From an uncultured Planctomycetales bacterium (lineage in GTDB: Bacteria > Omnitrophota > Gorgyraeia > Aquiviventales > Aquiviventaceae): a DNA stretch of 55,585 nucleotides. Position numbers and translations under genes: made by a program. Below the pieces are notes generated by a model. It did no database searches, was not told the DNA's origin, and saw nothing but the letters and a program-made list of their open reading frames with translations. The stretch covers positions 1 through 55,585 of the forward strand of contig CAYJRJ010000003.1 in NCBI GenBank assembly GCA_964372775.1, written 5' to 3'. Below are positions 17,609-52,559 of the stretch, in pieces (positions within the stretch are counted from its first letter, which is position 1; every line of letters begins with the position of its first letter).

Positions 17609-19192
17609 TCATTGTTGATTGGCGATCGCCATGACCTCATCAAAGCTGCCGAGGCCGCTCTTGTATTTGACCACGGCGTGATAGAGTCGTTCGTCAGTCG
17701 GGGTGCTGATCTTCGGCGTCACGACGACCGCCCCGACTCCGCGATCCTTGAGCAGCTGGGTAATCCGGGGCCCATGAAAGCCGCCGGTGATGAGGACCGC
17801 GAGGGGCTCGCCGGTCTCCTGCAGTTTCTTCAGGGTGTTGTTCACGAGCGCCGCATCGCGCTGCTGCGCCACGTCATAGAAGCGCTGGACCGCGCGCAAG
17901 GCTGAGGCGAGTTCTGACAATCCTGTAAATGGCTTGGGGGATAGGCCGTGGTGGGCGAGCTGAGCCTGGAAGAACGTCTCCCAGCCGCTGATGGTCGAGG
18001 ACCAGTCGAGTGTGGCCTGCCGCTCGTACTCCGCAGGCGAGAGCTGGAAATCCAGCAGCTTCTCGACCAGATCAACGTCCTGCTGAATCCGCGTCAGCGC
18101 CTGGCTCTCCGATGTCACGCTCAGCGCGTCCCGCAACTGCGCTGAGGCGGCGTCGAGCTCATCGGCCAGGTCAGTCGCGACGATCGCGTCGCTGGCAGCG
18201 AGGTAGCGCGTGTACCGGCTCAGCGCGGGGTAGGCGGCGAGATCGATGCGGGAGGTTGCGGCCAGTTCTTCGAGCAGCGTGTAGAACTCCACCGGCTTTG
18301 CGGTGCCCTGCTTCATCGCAGCACTCGTGGCCACCAGCCGCTCTAGGTCCGCCTCGCCGGCCTGCTCACTGAGCTGACCAATGAGGCGCTGTTGCTGTGC
18401 GCGCGCTTCTTCCACATTGATCTCCGATTCGAGACGGTGGACCTCAAGAAACCGCTGCAGATGGGGATAGCGCTCCAACGCGCTGCCTGCGCGCTCGGCG
18501 AAGGCGGCGAGCGCCTGCGCATAGTCGGCCAAGTCCAGTTCGTGCGCCTCAAACGCCTTGGCCTTCGCAGCGAGCTCCACCGCCGCCGGGTTCATCAGCC
18601 GAGACTCGAGCTCCTGGCACGATGCCAGGATGCTCTCCAGTAGAGGGCGGGCCGAGGCTCTGATCGACTCGGTCTCGAGAAACACCTTGACGTTCGCATC
18701 GTACAAGGCGCGCTGCTCCACGCCCCAGAGGATGAGCGGGTCATCCGAGACGATGTCCAGATACTCTTCCGCGCTGATGATGCCGGCCTTCAGATATTTC
18801 TCGGCCACCTGCCGGCGATTCTCCGGCGGGCCGTATTTGCGCAGATAGGTCAAACTCGCGTCGCCTTCACTGCCTTCAACCAGGATCAGCTTGAGGCCGT
18901 GGTGCGCAATGAGCTCTTCGAGGATCGTGATGATGTGCTGCTGGCCTTCGTAATTGGTGTGGGCTTCCTGGATGTGGACGACGATCTGGGGGTGCGAGGC
19001 GGCAGCGGCGTTCGGTTCGTGGGTCTCAAGGATGTAGCCGGCTTCTGACGGGATTCGAATATCGGCGGCGCGGGAGACTTCTGAGGATCTCAGGGAAGAT
19101 GCGGGGGATTGCGCGTAAGAAAGCGCTACCTTGCCGGCGCAAATAAAAATGGCCGACCAGGCCAACATACGTAGACGAGCCCCTTTCCCCAT
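17609..19192 (-). CDS. Signal-anchored 527-aa hypothetical protein; possibly TraB/Tiki/ChaN-like (GxxH) fold
   Basis: The ORF track frame is 17609..19369. I place the start at ATG 19192 (MGKGARLRMLAWSAIFICAGKVALSYAQSP) with AGGAGG 9 nt upstream, because the track's upstream 59 codons lie in an AT-rich promoter region. Motifs IVVHIQEAH...LILVEGS and LAVLITGGFHGPRI resemble the TraB/Tiki family, a weak call. Confidence 0.75.
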   Translation of the reverse strand: MGKGARLRMLAWSAIFICAGKVALSYAQSPASSLRSSEVSRAADIRIPSEAGYILETHEPNAAAASHPQIVVHIQEAHTNYEGQQHIITILEELIAHHGLKLILVEGSEGDASLTYLRKYGPPENRRQVAEKYLKAGIISAEEYLDIVSDDPLILWGVEQRALYDANVKVFLETESIRASARPLLESILASCQELESRLMNPAAVELAAKAKAFEAHELDLADYAQALAAFAERAGSALERYPHLQRFLEVHRLESEINVEEARAQQQRLIGQLSEQAGEADLERLVATSAAMKQGTAKPVEFYTLLEELAATSRIDLAAYPALSRYTRYLAASDAIVATDLADELDAASAQLRDALSVTSESQALTRIQQDVDLVEKLLDFQLSPAEYERQATLDWSSTISGWETFFQAQLAHHGLSPKPFTGLSELASALRAVQRFYDVAQQRDAALVNNTLKKLQETGEPLAVLITGGFHGPRITQLLKDRGVGAVVVTPKISTPTDERLYHAVVKYKSGLGSFDEVMAIANQQ

Positions 19193-19253
19193 ACGCTGGA
19201 ACCTCCTACAGCTCAACGTGTCAACCGTTCCTTCGCGTTGGAACAGTGACCAT

Positions 19254-19282
19254 AATATAGATGATTTGAAAGACTTTGTCAA
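19254..19282 (-). promoter_or_regulatory. Sigma70-type promoter TTGACA-17-TATATT for the 19.2-9.0 kb operon
   Basis: On the minus strand the -35 TTGACA is at 19282-19277 and the -10 TATATT at 19259-19254, with a 17-nt spacer. It sits inside the only strongly AT-rich island of this region (19193-19325), about 60 nt upstream of ATG 19192. Confidence 0.6.
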
Positions 19283-19325
19283 GCAATTTACTATTACAGT
19301 TGTTACCATATTTACTCCTTTGATC

Positions 19326-22300
19326 TCAAATGCCTCGCTGGACAGCACGAACGGATTGCACGATCCCATTCAGTCGAGTGGAGTTAGGCATACTCGCTTC
19401 CTGGCGGCGCCACTCCATCCACTGCAGCACCAGGCTTGCCGCCGTCATGACGAGCGCAGCACCCCAACTCCAGACGCTCTGCGCCGCACCCAGCAGCGCG
19501 TCATTGAGCCACACCACAGCCGGCACCCGCAGCTGCATGACGGACACCACCGGTGTTGTGCGCATCCCCGAGAGCGCGTAGTTGCGCAGCGCAATCCCCA
19601 CACCGCCCAATACACTCGCGGCGCCCAGCAGCGCTGCCGCCGGCACGCTCCAGCCGCCGAGCGCGACAGGCGCGTGCCACGCGAGCGATGGCAGGCTCAC
19701 CCCGTAACCTGCCGCCGCGCCGATCGCCATCCATACGCCCACGCCCAGCAGCGCCGCAATCAGCGCCCAGAAGTGGACCAACCAGCTGCCTACCCTGGCA
19801 GGATAGCGGCCGTCCTGATGCTGCACGCGGTTGAGCGCCACCACATTCCAAGTCGTTAGCAACACCGCCAGCGTTGCCAATCCGGCGCCCAGCCAAGTCT
19901 CCAGATTCCACAGGGGCCATTCCATGCTGTGCAGCCAGATCGTCCCGACCAGACCCGCGAGCGCGGCTGCGATCTCCGCCGCGTGCCGCCGGCTGAGCTT
20001 GCCGGAGAGGGCATGACGCGCCGCAAAGTACAACGCCGCCAGCGGCACCTGCGCTCCCAGAATCGTAAAGGTCAGGGCCGGGTCAACGAAGCTCAGCGAC
20101 CACGCCACGAGCGGGCCGGCGAGGGCCATATTCATGGCCAGTATCCACTGGTCTCTCAGGCGCACGCGGGTGAGCATGGCCAGGGCGGTCTGCGTGAACC
20201 GGCGCGGCGAGTAGGCGCTCGAGGCCGTCCAGAACAGCGGCATGACCACGACATTCAGCGCCAGATAGAGCACGTGCGCCGGCGCCCACCCGAAGACCTC
20301 GACCAGCGGCTTCCAGATCACCGCTTCCACGGCGCCGATGGCCACGCGCGCCAGCGCCGCCGCCACACCCTGCCAATAGGTCGCCCGCGCGGGACGCGCC
20401 AACGGCGCTGCCACTCGGTCGTCCGTCATTTTCAGCTCAACCGTGCTGGATCGCTCGACGGTCAAGGGACGCGTCGGATCAAACGCGCCGAGCCGATCGT
20501 GCAGCCGGTGGCCGTCCACCCAGACCTCGAGTGCCCCCAGATCCCGGCCCTGAGCCATGGCGTGCGCGAGCTGATCGCCCAGCGAGAGAATCAGCGAGTC
20601 GTGGATGGCCTGCGCATGCGTGAGCCCCTGCACTACAATGCTGATGGCCCCGTCGGCCAGCGGCCGGCCATCGGTGCCAAGGCCGCGCGCGAGCGCCGGG
20701 TTCACGATGCCGTCCGAATCGATCTCAGCGAACCAGCCTCCCATGCGCTCCATGCGCAATCCCTCCCGGACATTACCCGAGGCGCTGGTCGTTGAGATGA
20801 AGACCAGGGGCCGCGCCGCGCCGGCCGGCGCGTGCCGAAGCTGAGCTTGGAGCCGGCTCACAAACGCCCGGCCGCGCCATGTCGGCAACAACTGCTCCAG
20901 CAGAAAGAGACGGCCCAGGAAGAGCCAACGCAGGGCCCGCTGCAGCCGCACCCATCGCGCGGCTCCTTTGGTCAGTTGCAGTGCGGCATTGATGAGCAGC
21001 AGCCCGTCCGGCTGGCTCGGCCCGCCGTTGGCCCAGTGGCGCAGTGCCAGCATTCCTCCGACGCTGCTGGCCACCATGATCACGCGGCCCGGGCGCTGCG
21101 CGCGCAGATGCGCGATCACATCCGCGACGCCGCGCTGCACCAGCGTCTCAACCGGCCGATGCAGGCCGCGCCGAATGTGGTGCAGATCCACAAGCTCCAC
21201 GCTGGCCACGCGCAGTCGGCTGGAGAGCTGGCGCGCGACACCCTGCATCCAGTAGACATCCACCTGGCGCCGCCCGAACGATGCCTGGAGCTTGCTCAGC
21301 AGAAACTGCTGCAGCTCCATCATGACCATGCCGGGCAGCATGACGACGGTGACATCCGGCACCTCGGGAGCATCGGGCCCACCGATGAAGATCTGCTGGC
21401 CGGCCGGCGTGACGTCCTCGAGGAGACGGCTGGACGGCGACTCGATGGAGAGATCCTCTCCTGCCACCACGCTCCAGAATTGGCGCCAGCTGCTTCCAGG
21501 GTCGCTGACCAGCCAGGCGAGCGCCATCGCTGAAATACCCAGCACCAGCAGCGGCCATCCAGTCGCGCCAGCAAGGCTCAAGCCGATGCCGGAGATGGCG
21601 ACGATCGCTCCCGTGATGATCATGAAACTCGGCCAGCGGGCCAGCGCTGCCCGCAGCGAGCGGAGCAGATTCGGGAGAAAGGTGATGAGCATCCCCACCG
21701 GCGCGGCGAGGGCCAGCTGGCTGAAGGCTGAAGGCTCAAGGCTGAAGGCTAACCCGGGGCCAAAAATGGTATCAGATACCATTTTTCCGGAGCCATCGCC
21801 GGCCAGCGCGGGGGCGGCCAAGACGAGGATCAACAGCAGGACAACGGGAAGAAGCCCGGCCACTCGGAGCGCCTTGCGCAACTGCCGGATCCGCTGCGGG
21901 CTGACGCCAAACATCTTGGCGTGCCGCGCCGATGTCCATGTCGGATGGTTCCGCATCTGATCCAGCAGGACGTCACGATCAACTTTTTGCGCTGGGCCCT
22001 TCGAGGAATACGGAATGCCATGGCGGAGCATCCACCGCCGCATAGTGGACTGGCTCACCTGATAGCTGTCCGCGAGCCGTTTCTGTGTCGCATCGGGATC
22101 AGCGTCAACACGAGCCCTGAGCTCCTCGCCGGACGGCCGCACGCGCGGCCGTCCAGAGAGCCACCGGGCGGCTGCGAGGACGATGAGCAGCGGCAGCGTG
22201 GGAGGCCCGCCGAAGCGATACCACGCCATGGCCCGCAGGAATCCCGCATGGAGGAGTCCGGTCATCAGGAGGAGAGGGTTGCCGGCGCCCCGCTCCGAGT

Positions 22301-25300: not shown

Positions 25301-28300
25301 TGCGCAACTCCTCAAGCGTCCAGGGCACACCGTCCGCGCGCAGCTGCTCATTGATGACCGGCTCAAGCCGGTTGAGCTGTTCCGCCACCCAGTCGAGTGA
25401 GACGCCCCACGTGTGGGCCAGCGCGGTCAGCTGAGGCGGCGCGGGGTTGCGGCCGCGGGCAAATGCGCGAGCCCCTCGGAGATAACTGTGAAGCAGCTGA
25501 GGATCTGTGACATGGGTTACGACTCCTTTTCTCTCATACTCAAGGCCGTGTGACGAAATGAACTCCGAGAGGTACGTGTGATTCACTTTGAAATGGTCCG
25601 CGATGTCTCGTTGGGTTTGCCCCGGGTGCTCGTCTATATAGACCTGCACCTTGCGAGGATCGAGCGGGCGTCGCTCGAGATCAGCATCCGTCACGCGCAG
25701 ACCGGCGGCTCGTCCGGTCAGGACAATGAGGCGGCGTAAGGAGGCGTCGTGCCTCACGCGGCGGCCGAGCTCGGTGTCATCGAGGCCCACCTGCCGGGCC
25801 ACGAACATCTTGCTCGGCGCGCGACCATGCTCCTGGTAATACGAAATCCAAGTTGAAGCCACCGTGGAGTTGTCAACTGTGCGATGCCGACCTTTCGGGT
25901 ACCTGTTGTGGTGACTCCAGTACACCATGAGGCGATTGACCTGTGCCCGGTTGCGCACGGCGACCGTGAGCACGCTCCTGATGACCCGCCACGTGTGCTG
26001 AAGTAGACGCAGTCCCTCCACGGCGCCGAACCGCGCATTCCAGTTGAGTTGCTGCGAGACCAGTTGAAGCGGATACGGCCGCGGCATGCTTTCCCTTGCA
26101 CCCTCGCGTCGTTCGCGCAGGCTTCTCAGCCGCACGCCCTCCTGCGCCGCCAGCGCCTTTACCTGCGCTTCCAGATGAGTCAGGTACGCGTGTGTGTCCG
26201 CGGCACTGCGGCTTCCCATCAGTTCCACCGTGATGCGCTGCGGCAGCCACGTTCGCAAGGTGACCAGTAGTTCGGAAAGCGTCCCTTCACGTCGCGCATG
26301 CGCGATGGCTTCCCGCAGACCGGTCAGAAGCTCTTCAAGCGGCATGGGACGCTCCAACGTGCGAATCATCCTGTGCGTCCCGGGAGGCGCCCCCATCGGC
26401 GGAACGATCGCGAGGGTGATCCCGCTCGCAAGCGCAGCCGGGTATCCCCACACGACCCACAGTGTCGCGAGCCCCACGGCTGCCAGGGAGAGCCCGGCGA
26501 GAAGCGCCCAAGCACTCGACCCGCGAACCCAGCGGCCGCCGCGGGTGCGCCCATCTGGTGATGGGGCCCAGAGCGCTGCCAGGTCGCGGCGGATATCTTC
26601 AAGATTGCGGCGAACGGCCGGCGCGATCGATCCGCCACGCTCCGCCACGCGCCGCTGCAGGTCTGCAATCGTCAACGCCAGGGTGGCTGGCGGGCGCCCG
26701 CCGGCTTCGTCATAGACCGCGTGCAGCAACGCGTCGCGGCCCTCGACATCCAATGCCTCTAGCACACGGATCGCATCGGTCAACCGCCCGATGATGATCT
26801 TGGCCAGCCGCCCGCGGATGCGCGTTTCGCGCTCCACATGCGCGATCATCAGGCGCATGGCAGCCACAGCCTCTTCTCGGCGGCGCGCGGCATGCCCGTT
26901 GATCGCCAGCGCCGCCTCCATGGCCGCCAGCTCCTCGCTGAACGCCTTCTGCAGCGTGCCGCGCCTGGCCAAGAAGGCACGCAGGCTTAGCACCATACGG
27001 CGCGCTCGCTCAAACCCGTGCGCGATGAGCTCGGTCCGAACCAGTGCTGCCTCCGGCTCGCGCGCAAGCCATGCGCGCGTGGCCTCAAGCCGTCGGCGCG
27101 CCGTCACCAGTGCCTCGGGTGCGGTCGTAAACGGCGTCTTGCGCAGCGCCGGCTCCAACGCGGCCAACCACTGATCCTGCGATTCGAGGTGTGACGGGAT
27201 GCGCCGGGTCAGTTGGCGCACGCGCTCGATCCACGCCTGCTCCTTGCGCTGCTGCCGCAGCAGGCTCACCGCCTGCCTGACGACCGCCTCGCGGATGCGC
27301 TGAATGTCCTCGATGCGCCCCTTTCGCAGCGCGTTCTTGGCGTGCTCGATCTGGGCCGCCGCCAGGTCGGTACCCCCCTGCGCGAGCGCGGTACTCGCCT
27401 GTTCAAGCTCAATGAGCGCATCGCGCTTGCCCTCGACGTGCCCGCGCTCGAGCCAGACGATGACGTCCGCCAGCTGCTCTCGCGCGCGCTGCACGCGCCG
27501 GTCGCTGGGGCTCTGGCGCAGCTGCAGCTGGATGACGCGCAGGTTGCGCAGCTGCTCGAGGATGCGCAGGAATTCGGCGTATTCGGTTTCGAGTTTGTGG
27601 TGCATGCCGCGCAGCGCCGCAGCCAGCGAACGGTACGTGACGGTGACTGACCGGCGCGCCTTCACTCGGCGGCCGCTGAGGATGTTCACCGTAAAGCGCG
27701 TTTCTGGAATGCGCAGGCGGCCATCGGGCGTTTCCTGGATCCCGTACCCGGAGAGCCCGAGGACCTCGAAGATCGCTCCGAACCAGGACGCGGCGGTGAA
27801 CGTGTCGCCGCGCGAGCCGGTCGCGTAGGCGCGCAGCTGCTCCATCGCCAGCTCCATCTGCCGCTGGCGCAAGCCATCGTGAGCGCTCAGCAGCGTGGCC
27901 AGCGCCGCCGGGATGTTGCCGCGCGCGAGATGCCGCTCGATCAACCCCGCCTGCATCGCGATGCGACGCAGCAACAGCTCCTGTGCGCGATGGTTGAGCG
28001 CGCCCAACGCCTCGCGATCGCCGGCCTGCTCGAGGCGGACAAACTCGGGCAGCAGCGCGAGGTACTTTTTCGCTAACGCTTGGCTGCGCTCACCGCTGAG
28101 CTCTTCAGCAGGCACCTCAGGCAGCGTGAGGATGCGCCGCAGGTCGGCGAACGTTTTCGCGGCATCCACGGGGACCGCGCGCTGCGTCGTGTAGGCCACG
28201 TGCAGCTCGCGATGCAGCCGCAGCAGACTCCGCGCCGCCTCCTCGGTGAGCAACTGCTGATCGGTCGGGGTGACGCGCCCAGATGTGGGACGCGGACCTG

Positions 28301-31300
28301 ACGGAGGACGCACCATGCGCGCGATGCGCTGCACCATACCGCTGATGCCGATCCCTGAACGCGGCTCGAGCCCGGCGTAGCGGTGGCCCCGCGCGGTGGA
28401 GTATCCGAACAACAAGTCATGGTGCCGTGCGCCGCGGCCACGCCTTGCGTTCGTAGGTGCCTTGGGCAGCGCGAGGCCGAACGCCCGAGCGGCCTTATAG
28501 AGGGCGCGATCCCCGTCCTCGGCGGCGGGTTTCCGCAGGGTGGCGGCGTTGTTCGCGAGGCCGGCGGTCTCGCGGCGGGCGAGCTCGGCCGTGACCGCGG
28601 CAGCATCGGGGTACGTGACGATTCGGCTACGCGGCCCACCCACCACGTCCCGCACCACTCCTTCGAGATGGTATGGAATCCTGCCTTGCTCGAGTTGGGT
28701 ACGCAAGAAGTCGCGCAGCTCACGTCCGTCGGCCTCCAACTGATAGAAGGCTAACTCTAGGCGCCGCGGCCAATCCGTCCCGGAAGGTCGAGCGAACTCC
28801 CTCAAGAGATTATCAACCGCCCGCACCAGTGCGGGTCCCGTGAGACGGCCTCCCACCATGCTTCCTGACCCAAAGCCCCGGCGCATCCTCGCGGCTCGCT
28901 GCGGCACGCCACCAAAGCCGATCCCTGAACGCGGCTCGAGCCCGGCGTAGCGGTGGCCCCGCGCGGTCCGATCAACCAGACGGCCGAGTGATAGCCTGTG
29001 GTAGTTCGCGGAGTGAGACGGACCTCCGCGTGTTGGATCAGCCTTCGCTCGCAACGCGGTGAGCCATGCCTCCGCCGCGCGCGCGAGACCGTTCGCCCGA
29101 TCAAGCAGATGGTGAATGGTGTGGGTCGCGCTTTCATCGGAAGGCGACGCGTTCTTTCTGAGACGTGGCAATCGCCGCGCAAGACGTCGGGCCACCTCCC
29201 CTGCGCCATGAGCCAGCTCTTCAACATTGCCCTGTAATGCGGCAAGCGCGTACGAGGATTCTGTTGATGAACGCACGTGTGCGGGCTGCTTCGGTTGGTG
29301 GAACAGATCGGCATACCGCCGTTGAGACCGCTGCAGGGTTTCTTCCGCCAGCTCAATCAGCTCCTGAACTTCTTCAAGAGTCTGAATGCGTTGATGCGCC
29401 GTAAGCTCTCGCTCACCCGCTTCATCTTCTGTCGACTCGTACGCTCCCCTGTAATACCACACGATCCGGTTAGCTGCGACGAGCTCGTCACTCGCCGTTC
29501 CCATCTCGCGAGCAAGCCCCCACAGCATGTTGGCGCTCGATCGCACGCTTGGCTGTGCGGGCTCGCCGGCGTGCTGGGGTGCGGCGGGCTCAAGGAGCGG
29601 TCGGCTGAGCCACCGGGCGATATTCACGAGTTGAGGTGCGGTCCAGTAGCGACGAGTGCGTGGGAGACTGCGGAGGTATACGGCCGCCATGCGCTCAGCT
29701 TTCTGTCGCACCGCGGCTTGACGATCGTCTGAGAGACTTCCGCGTTCGAGCGCATACGCGATCTCAATCAACACACGGCGCAGCACATCATCAGCCGCAC
29801 GAGCGTCAGTCTCCGCCATGCGGAATGTGGATTGCACCAGTCGTTTCGTCAACTGCGCCGTCACATGATGCTCGAGCCGACCGTAAGACGCCCCGGGTAC
29901 CAGCGGCCCGCCGCCAAAGCCCAGAAACTCAAGCTGCAGTTGCGTGGCGCCTGCCGGAGCCGGGAGACGGCGGAGGAGCCGAACCGGACCGAAGTCTCGA
30001 TGGCGCCACACCGATGGCGCTGGCGGATGCTGTACACGCCGCGCGTGACGTCCTGAACGGCTCTTCGACACCCCAAACCCGCGAACACCAGCCCGGCCGA
30101 GCAAACCATCAGATCCTCCCACGCCGAGACGTCCTGCGTACAGGTGGCCGCGGCCATCGAAGCGTCGAATTTGATTCAGTGAGGGATCGTGGTGACGGGC
30201 GAGACCTCTCGGTTCGCGTCCCGAACCGTGCAGCGGACGCCGGGCCAGCTCGCCCAAGGTGTCTGGAATGTCCAGCGCTTCCCACGCCTGCGGGAACTTG
30301 GCGCTTCCAACATCGATGGTGAACACCACATCGAGGCCGACGTCAGGATCCAGGACCCGCACCTGTCCAAAGCGGTCCGCGCGGCGGTCATAGCCCGTGA
30401 GAAACCGTGCGGCTCTGATGAACGCCCGGTAGAGTGCGCGGCTGATCCTGGCGTCGGATCGCTGACCAGCCCGCCCCTGCACCTCGCTCAGCGGAGGCTC
30501 GAAGAACAGCCATCGCCCATCCGGGGCGTACACGCCACGAACCTGGTGCTCATGTGCCGCCTGGCGGCGGCCGAACAGCTTGTCATGGGTGATGCCGCCG
30601 GCGTCGAACCAGGCGTGGTCGTCATGCTGCGAATCAGCGATGATGCCTATGGCCAGGCCCCAATCTTCATCATCCAGACGCCGATCTCGAGTGACGGCCC
30701 GATCTATCGCCGCTTTGGCCTGTGTCCGGTTCCGGTAATACCGACGCGGAAGTTCCTCGTGGGCCCAATGCGTGGAGGCGATGAGCAGCGGAGCCGCTGC
30801 GGCGATGCCAAGCGTTGCAAACGCCGCGTAGGCCAGCGATGAGGCGAACCACAGCACGAAACCATGGACGAGCTTGGAGCCCCACCCGCCCGTCCGCTTA
30901 GACGGCGTACCCCCTCGCGGCGGCAAGAGTCCGATCCCCACCGCCAGCGCTTCAAGAACCTGCTCAGCGTAGCGCGCGTCACCATCGAACTGTTCCAACA
31001 GCGCCGCGCGTTCCGCGGAGTCCGTGGAGAACAACATCTCGATGTGCCGGATAACCTCTCCGGCAGCCACCCAACGCATGACCTGCGCCTGCTCGATTGG
31101 GCTTAGGTAGGACCAGACGAACAGCCGTTGAATCGCCGGCCACGCTCCGCTGGACGCCAACGTGCCGTCCGTCACGCCGGTTTCATCTTCGTATTCGACA
31201 GACACGTTCACCCGGTCATCATCGGACCACACCTGGGCGTCCTCGACCCACAAGAGGCGGGTCGGCTGATCCGACAGCTGCTGGAGCACCTGCCAGCGCT

Positions 31301-34300
31301 CACTCAGGAACCTCAACAGCACCGCGGCGGTATCGGGCAGGGCGAACTGCAGCACAGGCGCTTCAAAGGCATCGCGAGCCGCGTCATAGGCCTGATCGAA
31401 TTGACCCGCCGCCCTCGAAGCCTCTTCCCATTGCCCTTGCTTGAGCGCCTGGAGCATCCGACCCAGGTGCTGCACGAGCTTCTCGTAGGGCAGCGCATCC
31501 GGCAGATCCAGGTGCACAAGCTCCAGTTGGCTCTGGATGGTCGTCGCAAGCCCGAGGAACGCGCTGCCGACGCTGCGACCATACGTCACCTGCCAATTCT
31601 GCGGCGGGATACCCGGTTCTTCCGCGACAGACTCGTCCGGCTCCGCAGCAACCGGCTCCGCTGGTGCGGACGGCATCTGAGACGCCCGGCGCAGTAGCGC
31701 ATCGTAGCGGTCTCCCACCGCCCGCTCCGCATCGGCTTCCGAATCAAACACACCGCCGGCGAGCTGCTCCACGATCTGTTGCGTAATGTGCTCAGGCGTA
31801 TCGCGCGGCAGCAACTTGCGGACCGTGGCCTCATCCAGCTCGATCAGTTTGCGGATACCAGGTAACGACTCGATCAGCGGCAGATGGCTTCCGCCGATCA
31901 CCACCAGCACCTGGGACCTGCTTGGAAACTTCCCAAGCGTGGCGCGCAGCGACTCAAGACTCTTGCGATTGACGACCCTGGCGACCGTCTCCATCGTTGC
32001 GAGCCGCAGTCTCCCGTAGGCCGCCGGGTCCTCCTGACTCAGACGATGGACGCGCCGCATCGCGCCCCGGACCGCGCGCCACGGCAGATGTGGGGCGACC
32101 TGCGTGATCGCTTCGCGGGCCGCGTCGTCGTCAGCCAACCGCCAGTCAAGATCCCCTTGCCCCCGCAGCCGCCCCATGTCTTCAGCCAAGCAATAGCTCC
32201 AGGTGCCAACCGTCTCAATCGGCGTCATGCCTGCGAAGCCTTGCTCGCTCAGCCGCCCAGCCGCTTCCTCATAGATCGATGGGTCATCACCCTCGTACAC
32301 ACTCGCCGTGCCCACCGGAATCGCCAGCCGCTGCGCAATGGCGACCGCGTAGCGCACCTCGGGCGGAGCCAGCGTCAGGTTGTCCTTGATGGGCGAGTAG
32401 CTCTCGATGGCCACCACCCAATCATCCGGCGCGTCAACCATCTCGGGTGCCATCACCTGCCGGATCCGCTCTGTCCCCTCGATGGAGAAGTAGTCCCCAT
32501 GCAACACGTGGATCACTTTGTCCCCGTAGCGATACACGTCAAGCTGTTGACGTTGAACGGGCGGGACGATCGTCCGCACGCCCAGCTCCCGCTCGAAGAG
32601 CGGCCCCTGGATCTCGCTCAGCAGCCGCTGCGCTCGCGGATCCCGCGCCGCCGCGCCGAGGCTGCGGGGCGGCTCGCGGGTGGCGCGCAGCAGACCCACA
32701 GTCCCATAGCCGTGGTGATCGCCCTCGGTGATCTGCTGCACGCTGAATCCGGTATCCTCCAGCCGCTCTCGTGACGCCCGCCACGCCAGCTCCTGTTCCC
32801 CGTGGAGAGTGGCGCCGGCCATGCGATCGAGCGCCGTCGCCCCTGCCTTGCGCGCCACCGCCTCGTCCATCCACTCCAACAACTTCTTGGCAGGCGCCGC
32901 CCCAGACGTTGGGCCGGCTGATGTTGGACCACTCTTCTTGGCGACATACCCCTGCTGGTCAATGGCCAACGTGAAGTCTGGTAGCTCGACGGCCGCCACG
33001 ATCTCCTCCTCGGAACGGTGCGTGCGCGTCTCCGTCATGTACTCGTCCACGAGGGCGCTGACATGCTTGGGCCCATCGGCGACGCGTTGCGTGAGGTCGG
33101 CGGCGAGCTCGCGCAGCACGGAGGGGCTCATCCAGATGGTGCCGTTGTCCGGCTCCTGCTGAATCCGAGTCACGCGCACCACGTCCGGGGACTTACCGCT
33201 GAACCAGATCCGGTAGGACGTCTTTCGCTCCTCCCCGGTTATCACTAATTCGTGGAACGGGGTGCGGATGGAGGAGCGTTCCGGCAGCTCACCCTTGACT
33301 TTCTCGATCAGTTCGTAGTGGTCCTCCGTCCAGCGGAGCCATCCCTCCTGCTCAAGTGGATGGTTGGCGCCTAAGCGCCGATGGAGCACCACTCCCCGCG
33401 GGAGGCCAGACCACCTCGGTCCACGCTTCGGCCTCTCCGAGCTGCGCCGAGTTGGCATCGCCGTCGGGGACTCCACCGTGAAGGATGAGATGGCGAGCTG
33501 CGAGCTGATACCGGGCTGCTGCGCGGCGAGCTCAGCCAGCTGCTTCTGGTGGCCCTGCGCCGGCGCTTGCCGGCTTCGTTCCCAGCCCTGCACCCCACCT
33601 ATGCCGATCTCGAAGAGGCGTCCGAACTGCTTCTGCGTGAGCCCAATCGCCTCGCGCAGCAGACGCACCCGACGATGATACTCCGGCTCCTCGCGCAGCA
33701 ACACCGCCAGCGATCGGCCGTGGAGGATGTGGGTGACCTCAAGGCTCGGCCCAAGGTGCTCATTCCCAAGGTGCTCACTCACGAGATCCACCAGTGCGCG
33801 CAGCGCCGGCAGCCGGAAGGAATAATCCGTAACCCATCCGCCGCCTTCCTGTTTGATCAACCCCTCCGGAAGGGGCACTTCCGGACCCAAGGCTTCCACA
33901 ATGGCATCGAGCCGCTGATGAACGGCTGATGGGTCATCGCCAACGATCTCCTCGAGCCTCCTGATGAGCGCCGGCGCCAGCATCCCAACGGCGGCATCAA
34001 CCAATCGACGCCGCTCGAGCCATCCAGTCCGTCCTTCTGGTTGCGGCGTCCACGTGGGCGGGGGCTCGTAATACGCAGGGTCGGCGAGCCACGAGAGCAT
34101 CCACGCGTCGAGTCGCTCCGGTGAGACGTCGCCCTTCAGTTCAGCGACGCCGATCCGAGCGAGCATGGCTTGCTCCCGCTGAGTCAGCAGCGGACCGCGG
34201 GATGCGAGCGTCACACGCCACCGCTCATCCAGCGTGCCGTCCGGCTGGGTGAAGTGCGCGAACACCGCATAGGCCTCGCGCAGCGCCGGGTGGTGCGAGG

Positions 34301-37300
34301 CGATGTCCAGCAGATAGGACCTGAGGTCCGCCGCGCCCTGCGCCTTCGCCAGGTGCTGCGTGTAGCGCCATTGGAGCGCATAGGCCTCCATCTCATTGTG
34401 GATGCGCATGGCGACACTCTTCTTGAACTCGTGGCGGCGATGCGACTCCAGCTCCTGCGGCGGGATGCCCTCAGGGACACTCGGCAGCGCGCGCAGGATC
34501 GACATCGACGCGTCATCGCGTCTGACCTGAGCGCGACTGAGGTGGCTTAGCTCATGCACCAGGTGCGCCTCCACCTCCGCCTGCGGCAGGCCCTCGAAGT
34601 TCGCCAGGTTCACGTAGAGGGATCGGCTCTCGAGTTCCATCGCCAGGAAGGATTTCGAGATGAGCCTGGCGTCGAACGACAGCCGGGGACGCCGGACAAA
34701 TACGCGCAGCAGCTCGAGCAGCTCGTCCGTCTGTGGTGAGCGCGGCAGCCAGCCCTGCTCGATGTTGGCGATCGCGCGCGTCGCTGCGTCGAGCAGGTTC
34801 GCGCGGGCCGTCTGCTCCCGGTCCTCAGCCGCCGTGGGAGGCGATGCGCCCAGCCGTCGAATGATCCACCACCCACTCGCCGCCACCACGAGGGCGCCTG
34901 CGCCAAGACCGACCCACTTCAGGGCTTGCCGGCGCGTCAGACCCGGCGCGCCCGTTGCGGCGGCGCGCTCTCGTCGGCGTCGCTGGGCCCGCGTGTCCTT
35001 CGCTGCCCCGCGGCTCTTCGAGGGCCCGCCCCGCCGGACCCCGCCAAACCCAACTCCCGAACTCGGGTTCACCGCCTGCGCATACGGATGACCCCGGCGG
35101 CCGAGGACGCGCTTCGCTGAATCGTAGTACTGCGCGCCGCCACTCGGGCCGCGGCCGCCCAACCTCCCTCGAATTCCCGGCGTCCCTGAGCCGACGACGG
35201 GACTCAAGAGGATGTCGACAACCTGATCGACCTTCAGGTCCGTGTCCACTCCCTCCAGCTCTCCCACATCGACGCCACCAACGAGCACTCGGACGCCTGC
35301 TCGAAGCCGTTCATGGCCGGGCAGCCCTGTCACCAATTGGTCGCGCAGACCTGGCGCGTACCGATCCAAGCGCTCCAAGAGCTGGCGAAGCGTGCCCGCC
35401 GTAAGGTGCAGGACCCGCGCGCCATTTACCCACCCAGCCAGCGCGGCGGACAGATGCACCTCGATCGATGGTCGTCGGGCGAGCACATCCAACAGCCGGT
35501 ACTGCCGCCACAGCAGGCTGTTCGTCCCCCAGTGCTCTTCGACCGATGCGTTCGCGCGCGCCGCCATCGCCGCGGCTTCCTGGGGCTTGTCCAGAATCTC
35601 GTTGATCGCGCGGGCCGTGTCCTCAATCGATCGCGGCCGATCAAACTGCCCGGTCTGGGCATCGATGCCGACGACGTAGCCGGTGCCATGCTGCGGGTCT
35701 TGCCGAACGTCAATCACCTGCGAAGCCAGAGCGCCCACCCCACTGACGATGACCGGCTTGCCATGCCACATCGCCCCAAGTGCTGCAAGCCCCGAGCCTT
35801 CATTGAGCGATTTCAGGACGATCGCCGACGCCGCACTCTGGAACGCGTTCACCTCCAAGTCGTGCAACTCTCCGACGGTGAGTTCGTCGTAGCCCATCGC
35901 TTGCGCAGCGTCCGCCTGGGCCGCTGAGGGATTCGTCAGCCGGCCGGGATTGATCTGCAAGCGCAAGAGCTCCGCGTGCAGACGCACCCACGCCCACAGC
36001 AGCGCCCGCCGGGGCGAGGCTGGCAACAGCGGCACGACGAGGATGTTCTTCGTGAGCGAAGCCGGCACATGGGCCGCTTGGAGCCCGTCCTCGATATACG
36101 CGCGCAGCTGGCGCAGGGTCCTAAAGGCGTGCGCGTCATCGGGTGCGAGCGGCAACGTGAAGACCAGCCGCGGGAAGGCGTGCGGCTGCTTCCCTGGATC
36201 AAAACGGGCGAGGCGACTGGCCATCACCTGCAGGTAGGCATCGACCACGCCGAAGGGATCCCGCAGCACATCTGGGCGCGCGTGCTGGAGGATCAGCGGC
36301 CGATCAAGCGGCACCTCGTACTTGTCGAGCGTCGCTTCAATGAAGGCGTGGTCCAGCGGCATGTTGCGCGTCCCGTTCAAGTCGATCCCGGGCGAGACGT
36401 CCCAGTGCGAAGCCATGGCGTCCGGCGGGAGGAACTCGGGGCGGTAGACGGTCACGGCATCATACTGGTTGATGAAGGGTCGCAGGATACTCCAGGCGGA
36501 ACGGCTAGGATGCAGCGGCTCATCGCTGATTGCCGTGGCCACATTGCCCTGCCAGATGAACTGCGTCTCAGGAAACACGACGCGGAGCAGCTCGATCATC
36601 CCGGCCGGCTGGTGATCATGGATGACGATGACATCGGGAGCCGGCAGCTGCCGCCGTTCCTTCACGTCGAGGAGCGCTAAGACGTTGGCCACTTGCATCC
36701 GGCGCCAGAGATGGAAGTCACCGTCCGAAAAGCCGTCGGGCAGGCCCTGCAGGGCACGAGTCATCCGGCCCGTGACGTCATGGAAGCGCTGGTGGCGATC
36801 GGCTCCCATCACGAACCACCGCATCCGCAGCCGACGCTGCGGACGCATCTGGCTGAGCGCGTTGTTGAGCGCAATCAGCGGTTCGAGTTGATCCGCGACG
36901 CTGCCGCCGGCCCCTGAGGAGTTGAGGTGCCAGACCTCGACGTGCGGCTTGCCCCGGCCGAGCAGTGGAGTCACGCTGCGCGCGCGCAGCGCCAATCGGA
37001 CCATGCGCCCTACCCCGACCAGCCGACGCCATATGGCGAGATCCGCGTACGTCACACGACGTTCCTCGATGGGTTCAAGCTCCAAGTCCTCCGAGGGTTC
37101 GACGAACACGCCCGGGCGCGCCCGCAGCTCGACCAAGCGCCGCTCGGTGGCCAGCTGGCGCAAGGCGAGCTCCACGTCCACAGGATCCATCCGACGATGG
37201 AGCCGCTCGCTCAACTGTTGCGCCACGACATGAGGGGTGTAGGCGACCAGCGGCCGAGTGGTCAGGAGGGAGAGAATCTCGTCACGTAACTGTCCACTCG

Positions 37301-40300: not shown

Positions 40301-43300
40301 GCGCCCAGTGGAGCACCCAGAGGAGTCCGATCGCCAACGTGATCACGGCTGCGACACCAGCCTGCAGCCGCTCCTCGCGAATCTGGTCGGTGAACGTCCG
40401 CCGCATCTCGCGCCACCAGGAGCGATCCAGCGCTCGACGTGGCGAAGTCGCCAGCGCGATCAGCGTCGCGAACGCATACGCCCCGATCAGTTCCGTCACG
40501 CGTCGGGCCTGTCGCAGCATTGCGCGTATCTCATCCAGCGCACGCGCCTCGACCTGGCTCTGATACGGCGCATCGAGGATCTGACTGAGCTCGCGCTGTG
40601 AGATGGTCGGTACGTAGGTGCCCTGCGGCTGGTCCTTCTTCCCTGCGACGGACGCACCGAGGGCCTCGAGCCGGTAGATGACCCATTCGTGAGCATCCAG
40701 TATGTCATCGGGTTCGGCATCCCCCGTCATCCTCACCAGTTGATAGCCGAGTGCTTCCACCTCACGCAATGCCGTCTCCGTGCGCAATCGCTCTCCTGAA
40801 TCTCCGTCATCGTACCAACCCACAATCAAGTAGCCTCCGGGCACCAGCGTCCTGACGACCTCGTGCACGATGGCCTTCTTTTCGTCGCCCGTAATGGACG
40901 GGGCGGAGAGGACGCTCATCATGACCACCGCGCTCAGCGAGTGGTCCGGCAGCCCGCTGCGCTGGAACGCCGCATGCGCTGGCGACGCTTGACGGCCCTG
41001 CGCGCCTGTGGTATCGTCGACGATACGGAGGACGTGATCCGATGCCAAAGAGCGCGGTGAAGTTATCGACGAGGCAGGCCCAACGGTTGCTGGAGCAGCT
41101 CCCACCGGTCGTGAAGATTCATCTGGTGCGGCGCTGGGAACAGCAGACGTGGCCTGTGCGGTTACGCCAGCTCTTGGCGCGGATCGATCGACGCCTCGCA
41201 ACGTCTCCTGGACTTGCCCGAACGGCGCGGAAGAGTGTGGGCCCGGCTCGTCGGGCATTCCATGCTGCGCGCCGTCATCGACACTAACGTTCTCTTGAGC
41301 GGCTTGTTGGGTGGCCGCACGCGTCCTCTCCTCGGTGCGTTGATCGCCCGTCGGTTCCACCCGGTGGTCTCCCCCCTGCTCCTCGAAGAGTTGCTCGATG
41401 TCGTGAGTCGGCCCGCGTGGCGTCGTCTGCTCACTCACGCTGATCTTGGCGACTTGCTGACGATCCTCCATAGCGCGACTGCGCTCGTCATCCCCACCGA
41501 ACATCTCACGGTCTGCCGCGACCCCGAGGACAACGTCCTGCTTGAGTGCGCCCTCGCCGGTCGTGCCGACTTCCTCGTCACCGGAGACAACGACTTGTTG
41601 GTCCTCGATCCCTTTCGCGGCATCCGTATCCTGCGTCCGCGCGAGTTCCTCACGCTCCTGTCCTGACTTCGCGGCGGGCGCTGGCGCCGGCTCGTGGGCC
41701 GGGGCTGGCCCCGTCTCGGGAGTCGCGTCAAACGGGGCTGGCGGCGGCTCTGATCCAGAGCTGGAGCGCGTCGGCGGTTCGCTCTGACGAGCTTTGGGGA
41801 AGCCGCTGACGGTGATCAGCGTGCCTGTGGTGACTCCACTCGACGTATGTTCGCTCGGTTGCGGCTCGAGCTCGCCAGCTCTCCGGTCGCTGGCGCGGTA
41901 CACCACCCGTTGCCCCAGGGACTCTACCGAGAAGTCCAACCCATTCGCGTTGGCGGCCTGGCGCGCCAGCGGCAGCCCAAGCCCATGCAACACTGAGGGC
42001 CCGCGGGTTGAGGTCGTGGTCCCAACCGGCATGCTTCGCGCAATGTCAGCGATCCCTGGCCCTAAATCCCGCGCGAGAAGCTCGAAACCGCGTCGCCCGC
42101 CCTCTTGCTGCTCACGGATGAGGATGAGACCTGGCCCGCGCGCATGCGTGAAGTTCTTCGCGAGCTCGCCCGCTACGAAGCCTGGCGCATCCCCGCTGAG
42201 CCCCAGGCTCTGCGCAAAAAGATCCACAGCCGCCAAAATTTCCATCGCCCGCTGATCTGAGCCGTCAGCGGGATAGACGCGATAGCCGAACTCCTGTTCG
42301 AGGCGCGCCCTAGCAGCGGCGACCTCCTCAGATGTAGCCACCGGGGGCAGCAGCGTATCCATCAGCGCACGCGCCTCGATCTGGCGCTGATTCGCGGCGC
42401 GTGAGGAAGCGCTACCCTCAGAGGCCAACAAAAATGCGGCGAGCGCCTCATCGAGCCGTGTGATCGCATCGGTGACGGCGCGCCGCTGGGCGTCGGCGTC
42501 ATCGCGCGGCGCGCTGAGGAGCTGCTGGAGCACCTCGAGGAAGCGATCGCGCATCGCGTCACTGACCGAGGCATCCTCACCCCACCGCTCGCGCAAGGTG
42601 GCGGCGAGATCCTCCACCCCCACACGCCAGACATGCGGCGGCTTGTCGGTCATCAGCTCATACAGCATGTGAGCTAATCCGTAGGCCCAGCTGGGCGACC
42701 GATCGGTGTTAGCTACGTAGTCAATGAATCTCATGGTTGGCGAAGCGGCTTCCCCGGCGACGAGCACATTTTCGATCTTCGGGCTGAAATGATGAATGCC
42801 AGCTGATGCCACTTCGCTCATGCCAAGGGCCAGCTCTCGCGCCAGGCGCATCCGATCCGCCCAGGAGGGCTGTGTGTGCGCGATCCATTGGTCCATGGGC
42901 TCGCCGTCCACCCACGACCAGCGCAGCAGCGTCCAGGGGCGGCGTTCTTCTTCCATATCCTCATGGCGCCTGAGCGCGTCACCGGTGTAGTTCTGCGCCA
43001 CCAGCATCGTGTGGCCCGCTTTCCGATCGTCGGCGCGCACATCGAGCGGTTCGGTCGCCTCCAATACCACAAGGCGAGCCGGTGGCGGCGTCAAACGCCG
43101 GCGCACATCCGCGACGCGCTCGGCGCTGAGGTCTTCGTGCGGCACCTTGGGAATTTTGCCGAACCACTGACGGCCCTGCGCATCCAGCAGGACCACTTGC
43201 ACGCTGTTCATCCGCGCCCCGAGGACGTCGAGCAGATGGTAGCCCGCCCGCTCAAGCGGCGCGCGCAGCACGGCCTGCCACGCCGCACGCTGCAGCGGCA

Positions 43301-46300
43301 TCGGCGGCAGAGCCATCGCGCTGACCGGCGTCCCGGACGCCTCGCGCAAGGCGCGCCAGGCGCGCAACTCGATGAGCGCTTGCCCCATCGCCGCGCGCTG
43401 CTCGATCACCGCGTCAGGCGGCAGCGCCATCAGCTCCCACAGCAGCTGCGCGAGCGCTGCGCGTTCGGCATCCGTAACGGTCGGATCAGCGCCCCACCGC
43501 TCGCGCAAGGTGGCGGCGACATCCTCCTCACCCACGCGCCAGACATGGGGCGCGCTGTCGGTGAAGAGCTGGTAGAGCATGCGCGCCAGGCCTGAGGTCC
43601 AATGAGGGCGCGTGTCGTCGTGGCCGATATAGTCAATCTGCAGAAGCGACATGCGCCCGTGCTGTTCGCTGACGAGCACGTTTTCCATGACGGGGTCATT
43701 GCGGCGAATCCCGCGGCCAGCTAGGGCAGCGGTGGATGCGACGAGCTGTTCGGCAAGCTCCAGGCGCTGCATCCACGAGGGCTCGCTCGCCGTGAGCCAT
43801 GCATCGAGCCGCTGGCCGTCCACCCACGACCAGCGCTGCACGGTCCATGGCCTGCTTTCGTCGTCCATCCGCTCCTGGCGCCTGAGCGATTCCCCAGAAT
43901 AGTTGTGCGCAAGAAGATGCGCGTGACCCGCTCGTCGATCGTCGGCGCGCACATCAAGCGGCTCCACCGTCTCCGCCGGCACGATGTGTGCGGGGACGGG
44001 CGTCAACCGTCGCCGCACCTCTTCTACACGCACCGCCGAGAGATCCTCGCGCACACCAATCGGAACCTTCCCGGCCCACACGGTGCCGGCCGCATCGCGC
44101 ATCCGCACGACCACGCTATCCACCCGCACGTCCGCCACCCATTCAAGGTCATAGCCCGCGCGGCGCAGCGGCTCGCGCAGCACCAGCAACCAGGCCGCTT
44201 GACGGAACTCTTTCGGCGGATTGCGGCCGCTCGGCGGCAGGCCGCCGAGACCAAGCGCTAGAGCCGGAACCAGACTCAGCCATGAGACGTCCGTCGCTGA
44301 TTCCTGAGCGATAGCAGATATCGTCTGTGAGGGAACGATATCTGATATCGAGGGGAGGGCGGCTGCCGCCGAGGCCAGAGCGAGCGAGCCGGCCAGCGCC
44401 GCCGGGGCGAAGAGCGCGAAGACGCCGGCCCGCGTGCCACGACCACGGCCCCGGCGATCGGACGCGCCTGGTGAGGAGCCACTTCGGCCGGTCGGACCGC
44501 CTGGCATGGGGGCCGCCCAGCGCTCCTCGGCGTAGTCTTCAATCATGCGGGCGACGCGCTGCGGCCGCTCTAACACGAGCACGTGCCCGTTGAGCATCCG
44601 GCCCGGATTCGTGAAATACTCCCAGGGAGAGTTGATCTCATCGGCGATGGCCTGCGCCTGATCGTCCGGGATCAGCGCATCACCTTCGACAAGCACCGTG
44701 ACGACGCGGCGGCCCGCGGAGTCGTTGTTGAACTTACGCATCAGCGGACGGGCCCCGAGGAACCGTTCCCACAGCTTGGCCTTCAACCAGATGTAGACCG
44801 CCGCATCGATCTCCTGGCCAATATGCCACGGACGGAACGTGCCGCCTGATGCTACCACCCGCCTCTGCGCGATCTTGAGCAACGGCTTTGAAATCAGGCC
44901 AGCGGAGGCCAGAGGCGCCAACATGCCCAGCCACCAGGTGTCCGGGAAGCGTGCTTTGGTTTGCTCGCGGACCGTATCCGCCAGCGCGAGCCACCCTCGC
45001 ACCACCAGCCCAGGCACGCGGCTCTGGATCGCCAGCCACGCGAGGGGATAGGGTTTTGCCAGCAGGACAAGTGACTGAAGCGGCGCTTTCAAGAGCCGCT
45101 CGAGGAGTGCCGGCCCAGGCACCGGCAGCGCGTCAACACCAAGTTTGACGACGCTGTGAAAATCGCTGATCGACATCGACGGATCAAATGGCGTGATCCG
45201 CATCACCCCGCGCACCAGGTGGAGCACTCGATCCTTGGGGGCAGCCGCGTCATCCTGGAGCACGACTTCCTGCCAGATCGTGTCGGCGATCGAGTGCGTC
45301 ACCCAGAGGATGCCGTCCTCCTGACCGAACCGCTTGATGATGGCCCGGCGCTCCTGGGCGTAGCGCTCCATCAGGTGCAGCCGGGATTCCTCGATCGTGT
45401 CATAGGGGGAGCTGCGTCGAGGGGCGATGACGGTGTAGTCATCCTTCAGGAGCTCCATCACCAGATCCCACGAGAGCTGGCCGGCCGCCCCGTGATCAAG
45501 TCCGATGACCGGCTTCCCTGGTTTGCCCTTTCGAAAGTCCACGATGACTTGGCCGACAATCGCGCCATGGTCGTCCAGGACGTCCACGGGCTCGGTTTCC
45601 CAGGTCCGCGACTCCTCATCGAGGTAGAGCCGTACCTTGTCGCGGCCGAGTTTCTCGCCCAGCTCGTGGATGATGCGCCCGGGCGTCTCTTCCACCGAGC
45701 CCTCGGGAGCGAGCACGCGTCCTGCTGCCATGCGCTTGTGCTTGATCAGCCCGCCTGTCACCACCATGATCGCCTTGCGGGTCCTCAGGAGCCGCCGTCG
45801 CGAGGCGGTCACGCGCACGGTGCCCGACTCATCGACCATCACGCCGTACGGCGGCACGTCGCGCCCCCTGCGCAGCAACGGATCCCGCGGGTGCAGGCTG
45901 GCGGTCTCCCCTCCCTCGCCCAGGGCGAGGAGTGTGAGATCCATACGGCGCCACCCGACCTCTTCGCTGTAGCGCTGCGCTTCCTCCTTGGCGTGGCGCA
46001 TTGCCGCACGCTGGGTCTTGAACGACCCCCTTAAGATGCGATGGACCTGCGGCGCCACAGGGAGCTTGGACAGGAAGGTCTCATGAAACACGCGGTAGTG
46101 GCTTCCCGCGTGCGAATCCGGCACCATGCGCTCATCGGTAAAGTAGATCTCCCACTTCGACCAGTCGGCGTCACGGGTCGCGAGCAACGCATAGATCGGC
46201 GCAAACGTTCGGCCGCTGGCGATTTGGAGGCGGAACACGCCGCGCGCGCGAATCGCCTCGTCGGCCGCTGTGGTGATGTCATCCACCACATCCCTGGCGA

Positions 46301-52556: not shown

Positions 52557-52559
52557 CCC

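Follow-up and report, generated by a model that had tools for sequence, protein, structure and literature searches.

A recurring linker motif under peptide-level selection in a very long, cysteine-poor open reading frame of an uncultured bacterium

In MARTX toxins, the linkers between effector modules are cut by a cysteine protease domain (CPD), which cleaves after leucine at short sites. Polymorphic toxins carry short junction motifs, VENN in CdiA and PxxxxDPxGL in Rhs/YD proteins, each present a single time, ahead of a C-terminal toxin whose immunity gene lies next to it. For the giant proteins of Omnitrophota, post-translational cleavage into several products has been proposed, the cleavage points being unknown (West-Roberts et al., bioRxiv 10.1101/2023.11.21.568195). 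Here we describe a recurring peptide motif in contig CAYJRJ010000003.1, analyzed in full (55,585 nt, hereafter the window; GC 62–68%). One open reading frame (ORF) on its minus strand runs from 55535 to 19326 (12,069 codons) and contains four copies, a to d, of the motif. The motif is translated and is maintained as a peptide by purifying selection; it is best described as a new, lineage-specific linker motif.

Like the Omnitrophota giants of the 'Archaeovorin' type, the window ORF is very long, has many transmembrane segments, and contains highly divergent embedded domains. It differs from them in that SecA_DEAD, C39, and S8 domains were undetected, the DNA is ~65% GC, the recognizable domains resemble metabolic enzymes (GlnD, 6PGL, PALP, TreT), and the ORF is partly a shadow of opposite-strand genes; a recurring linker motif is not reported for that family. 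The likeness to MARTX toxins lies in a giant multi-module protein with flexible inter-module linkers, which in MARTX are processing sites, but the window ORF has two cysteines and no CPD match, and its 40-residue motif stands at few boundaries. The motif also resembles the VENN and Rhs junctions as a short conserved peptide at a module boundary whose coding DNA could act as a homology patch, as in the identity of copies c and d within diverged flanks. In contrast to those junctions, the four copies are internal, with 3,000–5,270 residues between them and the C-terminus, there is no toxin or immunity family downstream of them, and nucleotide identity at the junction is confined to the c/d pair (51 nt), with none among a, b, and c.

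The aligned copies (Table 1) define the consensus [HY][HY][DH]-x(8-12)-RGHxYA[GQ]-x(4-13)-G[IV]-G[FI][GS]G, which spans ~40 residues and has nine invariant positions. RGHxYA starts at residues (aa) 6814, 8462, 8859, and 9049, in every case in the frame of the minus-strand ORF. Its four occurrences compare with 0.006 expected from composition, and no more than one per shuffle was seen in 3000 shuffles. When profiles were built with one copy left out, the omitted copy was the top remaining match in every case; a profile of all four copies found no fifth in six frames of the contig, the next match scoring below 1 bit. The leading tripeptide varies (YYD, HHD, YHR, and HHD), and copy b has a Gly-rich insert of 9–13 residues between RGHLYAG and GFGV, both of which are exact in this weakest member of the profile. 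An earlier, sequence-only reading of the window had named four recurring copies, and these were recovered in one frame. A scan with a motif model, which that reading had proposed for the genome and its relatives, added no copy in six frames of the contig or in 36 loci obtained through neighboring genes (described below). We conclude that the motif family is real and statistically secure, with c and d close, a clearly related, and b marginal by profile alone.

Table 1. Coordinates of the motif copies and of other features in the window
Feature	Position (nt)	Strand	Remarks
Motif copy a	35031-35150	-	aa 6796-6835; GPSGGAQYYDSAKRVLGRRGHPYAQAVNPSSGVGFGGVRR; leave-one-out independent E-value 1e-3
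Motif copy b	30051-30215	-	aa 8441-8495; most diverged; leave-one-out independent E-value 0.014
Motif copy c	28896-29021	-	aa 8839-8880; leave-one-out 4e-12
Motif copy d	28326-28445	-	aa 9031-9070; leave-one-out 1e-8
51-nt core of copy c	28917-28967	-	identical to core of d; encodes TARGHRYAGLEPRSGIG
51-nt core of copy d	28347-28397	-	identical to core of c, 0 mismatches
Diverged tandem unit ending in copy c	28839-29159	-	aa 8793-8899; 43% identical to unit of copy d by blastp (107 aa, E 6.5e-11)
Diverged tandem unit ending in copy d	28269-28574	-	aa 8988-9089; paralogous to unit of copy c
Island of low third-position GC	28980-30180	-	in-frame; 0.54-0.72 versus ~0.8 elsewhere in the ORF; ~1.2 kb
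Internal Tat-like TRRQALK and 19-residue hydrophobic segment	34851-34937	-	33 aa after copy a; ~aa 6867
Possible SAMP/MoaD/ThiS-like beta-grasp upstream of copy a	35187-35462	-	aa 6692-6783, ending PVVGSG; below threshold
Tiki/ChaN-like gene	17609-19369	-	~540 aa; directly downstream of the giant ORF; superfamily E 0.002-0.007 in 3/3 homologues
Consistently coding part of the long ORF	19326-40900	-	~aa 4870-12069; all four motif copies; in-frame Pfam domains and codon signal
DUF433	54122-54409	+	E 6e-19; antisense inside the long ORF
DUF5615	54406-54756	+	E 2e-20; antisense inside the long ORF
Second DUF433/DUF5615 pair	54876-55526	+	antisense inside the long ORF
BrnT	52131-52556	+	E 3e-9; antisense inside the long ORF
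Retropepsin-like (RVP) ORF, weak	53358-53798	+	E 0.011; antisense inside the long ORF
PIN_3	41214-41666	+	E 6e-24; antisense inside the long ORF

Because parts of the long ORF proved to be shadows of opposite-strand genes, the reading frame of the motif was tested directly. Over the six RGHxYA codons, copies a and b differ at five third positions, a and c at five, and b and c at three; among these copies there are no first-position differences, and the one second-position difference falls at the variable x. The codon-aligned antisense peptides are unrelated to one another (RIRMTP, CVQVAA, and GVAVAP). Third-position differences together with unrelated antisense peptides argue that purifying selection acts on the peptide. 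Outside their identical core, the repeat units that end in copies c and d share 32% of their residues when read in the ORF frame and 14% when read antisense. On the plus strand, stops inside the 51-nt core interrupt two of the three frames, and plus-strand ORFs in the motif region gave no Pfam match. An opposite-strand gene or mobile element was rejected on the codon-position pattern and the empty Pfam scans of the plus-strand ORFs. An RNA element was likewise rejected: Rfam had no match in the motif region, and neither strand folded better there than shuffled sequence (z-scores +0.85 to +1.6). The template/variable repeat pair of a diversity-generating retroelement was rejected on the c/d mismatches, which lack adenine specificity.

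Copies c and d have a history of their own. The 51-bp identical core that the sequence-only reading reported for them is confirmed: ACCGCGCGGGGCCACCGCTACGCCGGGCTCGAGCCGCGTTCAGGGATCGGC occurs at the two positions given in Table 1 and at no other site, even with three mismatches allowed. All 17 codons of the core are identical, for which P = 2.7e-8 given the gene's own codon usage and the same residues. Synonymous differences start right at the edges of the block, and the flanks are saturated. Since codon bias cannot explain the identity, it means a short gene-conversion tract or recent copying, not peptide selection alone. Of the alternatives offered earlier, gene conversion or selection on the motif, both are seen, in different sets of copies: conversion in c and d, and peptide selection among a, b, and c. 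The accompanying claim that the sequences around c and d are unrelated was wrong, as the blastp alignment in Table 1 demonstrates; by that alignment the two copies are the ends of two old, diverged tandem units. The cores are spaced 570 nt (190 codons) from start to start, so that an exchange between them would insert or delete a single module without shifting the frame. The island of low third-position GC lies between copies b and c and may fit later in-frame acquisition of a module.

The surroundings of the motif are linker-like. Copies a, b, and d lie within segments that are poor in hydrophobic residues and rich in Gly, Ser, and Pro. A basic Gly/Ser/Pro-rich tail follows each copy, with net charges of +7, +7, +4, and +1 over the next 30 residues, in agreement with the basic Gly/Ser-rich sequence described earlier. 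A single-sequence AlphaFold2 model of aa 8701-9200 reached a mean predicted local distance difference test (pLDDT) score of just 53. It contains confident helices at 8701-8835 (pLDDT 80–88), with values of 28–49 across copy c (model residues 131-180) and 25–41 across copy d. The predicted placement of c and d in low-confidence coil between helical modules fits a linker. About four of ~13 linker-like segments in the coding part carry the motif, and all copies fall within aa 6796-9070. No copy was found between the GlnD, 6PGL, PALP, hydrolase, and glycosyltransferase (GT) domains, and the enzyme-rich upstream part has none. Of the earlier suggestion that a linker motif delimits the modules, the description as a linker fits, but most linker-like segments, and all boundaries between recognizable enzyme domains, are without the motif. 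The motif does not delimit the modules of the long protein in general.

Copy a is distinguished by what follows it. Twin-arginine translocation (Tat) signals consist of S/T-R-R-x-F-L-K and a moderately hydrophobic region at the N-terminus of an exported protein. The RR-plus-hydrophobic segment that the sequence-only reading noticed after copy a is present, as TRRQALK and a 19-residue hydrophobic segment, but it lies ~6,870 codons into the ORF. There is no in-frame ATG, GTG, or TTG between aa 6823 and 6880, and an internal translation start before the segment was rejected on this basis. With no start codon between copy a and the Tat-like segment, a role as an N-terminal signal would be possible only after an upstream cut. 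Bradyrhizobium FbcH (cytochrome b/c1) is a polyprotein cut by signal peptidase after an internal signal, with no upstream recognition motif. The signal-peptide-like region in the middle of the window ORF is reminiscent of FbcH, whereas copies b, c, and d differ from it in that no hydrophobic segment follows them. Signal-peptide-like segments, in which a basic n-region precedes a hydrophobic core that closes with an AxA-like end (e.g., APALA|GD), are found inside the ORF at 44433-44609 (aa 3703), at the Tat-like segment itself, and at ~21800-21900 (aa 11225). About 20 further hydrophobic segments are spread along the ORF, which suggests a membrane-threaded topology.

Upstream of copy a, a beta-grasp domain had been proposed. 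Beta-grasp precursors of the SAMP/MoaD/ThiS/CysO type are trimmed after a C-terminal Gly-Gly by JAMM peptidases. The segment at aa 6692-6783, which directly precedes copy a as claimed, has weak similarity to such proteins, covering positions 2-88 of 91 of NCBIfam SAMP1 (E 0.0023, 18.4 bits against a cut-off of 60) and matching Pfam ThiS with E 0.039 (15 bits against a cut-off of 22.5). The position of copy a thus stands, but the domain itself is only sub-threshold; both matches are far below the family cut-offs, the segment ends in GSG rather than GG, and the other three copies follow unrelated helical modules. An AlphaFold2 model of aa 6680-6910 (mean pLDDT 44.8) was too poor to inform on the putative fold.

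A bipartite motif of ~40 residues with nine invariant positions in probably disordered sequence leads us to favor, tentatively, a lineage-specific recognition element located in the Arg/Gly-rich, probably disordered linkers in the C-terminal half of a Cys-poor, membrane-associated, multi-module protein. The motif and its neighboring sequence spread by intragenic duplication, and a stretch of at least 51 nt was homogenized recently between copies c and d. One partner protein shared by the copies would bind the motif, which would probably fold upon it. Docking, or binding-induced folding, is preferred over a bare protease site because the motif is bipartite and extends over ~40 residues in disordered sequence, and docking or locally regulated processing of one sub-region would be favored over a general polyprotein maturation site because most module boundaries and all related giants examined are without the motif. 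Binding or cutting at copy a could uncover the Tat-like signal located after it. Cleavage is possible mainly there, where it would explain an otherwise unusable signal. On the sequence evidence, the mechanistic reading as cleavage or docking is plausible but unsupported, the single hint in its favor being the Tat-like signal after copy a, which has no start codon ahead of it.

Several observations weigh against a recognition element. Two of the four copies are recent paralogues, which leaves effectively three independent observations, and copy b is weak (leave-one-out E 0.014). The AlphaFold2 models are single-sequence and of low overall confidence, and no partner, protease, or binding domain for the motif was identified. 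A four-copy profile gave no match at E ≤ 1e-3 among 1.84 billion representative proteins; copies as diverged as a or b score 4–8 bits against a profile of the other three, so this negative excludes c/d-like copies only. The window's own long ORF was not returned by profile or word-indexed searches, and very long proteins may be missing from the libraries. Viral contigs gave no match to a degenerate back-translation of the c/d core. Word-indexed queries covering aa 6686-9122 and aa 5000-6790 returned no homologues, the tool being insensitive here; these negatives are weak because PALP (Pfam E 4e-35) and the window's own ORF were also missed. A genome scan with the segment from the GT domain to copy a returned only ~30% identical GT domains in unrelated metagenome-assembled genomes, and a metagenome scan with the b-to-d region found no relatives. 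Related loci were obtained through neighboring genes, eight from homologues of the FBPase-domain protein encoded downstream (L003-L008, L039) and thirty from homologues of the Tiki-like gene (L009-L038). When the motif profile and regular expressions were run on 36 of them (L003-L038; up to 3,300 residues of the C-terminal part of each giant), no copy was found, the best score being 2.8 bits. Counted over the loci fetched, the motif is missing from 37, of which 35 are related. Within the reach of these searches, the motif is confined to a single gene, with four copies on one contig, and hence has no comparative support for function beyond that gene.

An alternative, which we consider unlikely, is that the copies are polyprotein cleavage sites at or near which a dedicated or host protease cuts, releasing the modules. 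Their location in linkers is compatible with this, as are the Tat-like signal that internal initiation cannot reach, the further signal-peptide-like segments at aa 3703 and 11225, and the proposal of cleavage for Omnitrophota giants. In addition, a gene with weak similarity to the Tiki/ChaN superfamily is conserved directly downstream of the giant gene in relatives. The invariant positions of its protein include H132, E135, and H137 (HIQEAH), E165, E218, R504, D505, and ITGGFH (527-532), and its product could be a metalloprotease-like partner of the giants. A profile of this protein found no credible match in the PDB (best E 0.0016, to a myosin light chain), and a search of plasmids with it returned no match. 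A related, more specific proposal is that the motif is a recognition site for cutting, or for docking of a partner that controls cutting, in a membrane-threaded polyprotein made up of enzyme-like modules, with copy a freeing the Tat-led module and the Tiki/ChaN-like protein as the candidate enzyme; it seems rather unlikely. Against cleavage, the motif accompanies only ~4 of 13 linker-like segments and no boundary between recognizable enzyme domains, related giants are without it although the candidate protease gene is conserved, and ~40 conserved residues far exceed usual protease sites. Nor do the copies share a fixed Ser, Thr, Cys, or Asp-Pro: Asp-Pro occurs in copy b alone, the Ser before G[IV]G is unaligned in b, and there is no Cys. 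Pfam and NCBIfam scans found no match on or adjoining any copy, no peptidase or self-cleaving family in the modules beside them, and no peptidase family elsewhere in the ORF. An autoproteolytic fold, which the sequence-only reading had suggested looking for, is accordingly not indicated, with no self-cleaving profile (SEA, GPS/GAIN, intein/HINT, or FrpC-type Asp-Pro module) around the copies and c and d predicted as low-pLDDT coil. The two HExxH strings in the long ORF, put forward there as protease modules, are compatible with chance (0.6 expected), and neither fits a peptidase family; the cassette-encoded aspartic protease reduces to an ORF on the other strand with a weak RVP match (E 0.011), located ~18 kb upstream of copy a. 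The broader claim of a general polyprotein cleavage site is not supported, given the absence of the motif from most boundaries and from related giants and the lack of a detected peptidase.

A role at the level of DNA is improbable for the set as a whole. On this account, motif DNA provides homology patches for in-frame duplication, deletion, and exchange of modules, as at VENN and Rhs junctions, and the peptide is incidental. The sharply bordered c/d identity and the 190-codon spacing, by which unequal exchange keeps the frame, agree with it; so do the island of reduced third-position GC that b and c flank, the near-identical blocks that bracket cassettes at the 5' end of the ORF, and the mosaic nature of related giants, which share scattered modules (with L019 and L020) while flanking genes are 50–55% identical. 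But synonymous sites differ almost throughout among copies a, b, and c, which leaves no usable nucleotide homology while the amino acids are kept, and the downstream sequence has neither a toxin-immunity pair nor any other exchangeable pair of cassettes; acting purely as a DNA junction suits the c/d pair alone. It is distinctly improbable that the motif is instead a small structural or metal-binding element, such as a hairpin, a hinge, or a membrane-interacting glycine patch that needs no partner. The invariant R, G, H, Y, A, and G...G and the initial His/Tyr/Asp are typical ligand or turn residues, and the motif is long for a simple binding site; the first tripeptide, however, is unconserved, low-confidence coil is predicted, and no known domain matches. 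We give little credence to a functionless relic of repeated duplication, in which a linker was copied along with modules and looks conserved through recent copying or conversion. Copies c and d do lie within duplicated units, other internal duplications exist (e.g., aa 3773-4050 versus 4077-4354), and the motif is private to this gene, but the flanks of a, b, and c are unalignable and their synonymous sites saturated with RGHxYA intact, a pattern that neutral decay would not leave. Rickettsia palindromic elements (RPEs) are selfish repeats inserted in-frame into genes, and the motif resembles them as a recurring, insert-like stretch of ~40 residues at insertion-tolerant places in coding sequence. 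An in-frame mobile repeat of the RPE or attC type, or a strand or frame artefact in which the peptide is shadow translation, is extremely improbable and effectively refuted by the codon-position pattern. Parts of the ORF are truly antisense to plus-strand genes (PIN_3; DUF433/DUF5615 and BrnT at 52131-55526), the codon-aligned plus-strand frame has ORFs between the copies, and third-position GC is low between b and c. These points are outweighed by third-position-only differences in the minus frame with unrelated antisense peptides, by the stops inside the core and the lack of Pfam matches on the plus strand, by the higher identity of the c/d units in the ORF frame, by peptide-level conservation among a, b, and c, and by the absence of palindromic or excess RNA/DNA secondary structure, with all copies in one gene, strand, and frame and none in 38 loci.

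The giant gene belongs to a recurrent type of locus, which occupies 8296-55535 of the window; the related loci (L003-L039) come from metagenome assemblies, at least one of them from groundwater. Homologues of the FBPase-domain protein are 47–64% identical to it, and the thirty homologues of the Tiki/ChaN-like protein, from metagenome contigs, 20–56%. A contig from sequencing run ERR4904391 encodes an identical FBPase-domain protein, and this run therefore probably includes the same organism. Where the contig is long enough the layout is kept: a very long Cys-poor ORF is followed by the Tiki/ChaN-like homologue and then by at least one large, Cys-poor protein that carries enzyme domains. Called giant genes in these loci reach 14,741 and 15,048 aa. 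The giants can hardly be aligned between loci though their neighbors are 50–55% identical; the window ORF has no more than scattered modules in common with them, namely aa 7187-7369 (L019) and aa 11376-11697 (L020). The downstream enzyme domains across loci are gluconeogenic or glycolytic and include FBPase_3, PEPCK, enolase, PGK, TIM, GAPDH, malate synthase, and isocitrate lyase, and the FBPase and PEPCK proteins of the window have N-terminal signal-peptide-like segments. Cysteine depletion extends over 19326-55535 and 9038-17643 of the window and over the long ORFs of L003-L038. The 12,069-codon ORF has just two cysteines (aa 7782 and aa 10880), the FBPase protein none, and the PEPCK protein two, both among its first 46 residues, inside the signal-like segment or shortly ahead of it; in related large proteins the count is 0–8 per 1,000–3,300 residues, and GH94, an ordinary neighbor, has 10. 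Recurring stretches are also found elsewhere. In the partial giant of L008, a 47-residue His/Pro/Gly-rich stretch at aa 155-200 and 600-646 ends in SGFGFEV or SSGLGVDI and is faintly motif-like; L017 repeats an exact 15-mer (aa 93-107 and 807-821); and the PEPCK protein of the window contains 'GDITMAAAGEAAIPQWRLDP' twice (aa ~760 and ~1150). These stretches are of unrelated sequence, and their surroundings are otherwise dissimilar. No published description of this giant-gene locus family was found in the literature searched, and the family is apparently undescribed.

The 12,069-aa 'giant protein' is over-called. Its consistently coding part includes PALP, alpha/beta-hydrolase, TreT/GT1, and helix-turn-helix domains as well as numerous transmembrane segments, and the enzyme-like domains recognized in the ORF as a whole are GNAT, GlnD, 6PGL, PALP, alpha/beta hydrolase, and TreT/GT1. 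The toxin-antitoxin-type genes on the plus strand (Table 1) lie inside the ORF, in most cases in the codon-aligned antisense frame. Stops in the minus frame then correspond to the rare codons TTA, CTA, and TCA, so that the long frame can stay open by chance. Residues 1 to ~1130 and ~4540-4840, where codon-position GC is patchy, are antisense to real plus-strand genes and for this reason are judged to be shadow translation and no credible protein sequence. Either two large genes have lost an intervening stop, or one gene reads through the antisense of a toxin cassette; the giant could also be shorter than called. Near-identical blocks at 52053-52170, 52800-53060, 53817-54077, and 54796-54830 (261 nt at 99%, 118 nt at 90%) recur at spacings of 762–1017 nt on either side of the plus-strand toxin-antitoxin cassettes. 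Translated in the minus frame, they give ...APTGDVYGG...DDDTKFAHSGLHLIAG..., resembling the start of the credible coding region, and they look like duplicated 5' ends left behind by successive cassette insertions. The three N-terminal APTG[DH]xYGG copies, which had looked like a second subfamily, were set aside; their translation is doubtful because the ORF there is interleaved with real plus-strand genes. Further along, a ~280-residue module is duplicated in tandem directly after the signal-like segment at aa 3703 (aa 3773-4050 and 4077-4354, window 42435-44216; 47–57% identity).

In one bacterial giant protein, a short, selected, recurring linker motif beside an internal Tat-like signal offers a concrete, mutable target for the question of whether such proteins function as a single chain or are cut into pieces. 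The locus family around the giant gene may matter more than the motif itself. If the motif were indeed a cutting site, or a docking site for a partner that controls cutting, it would be the first processing site to be defined for any giant protein of bacteria.

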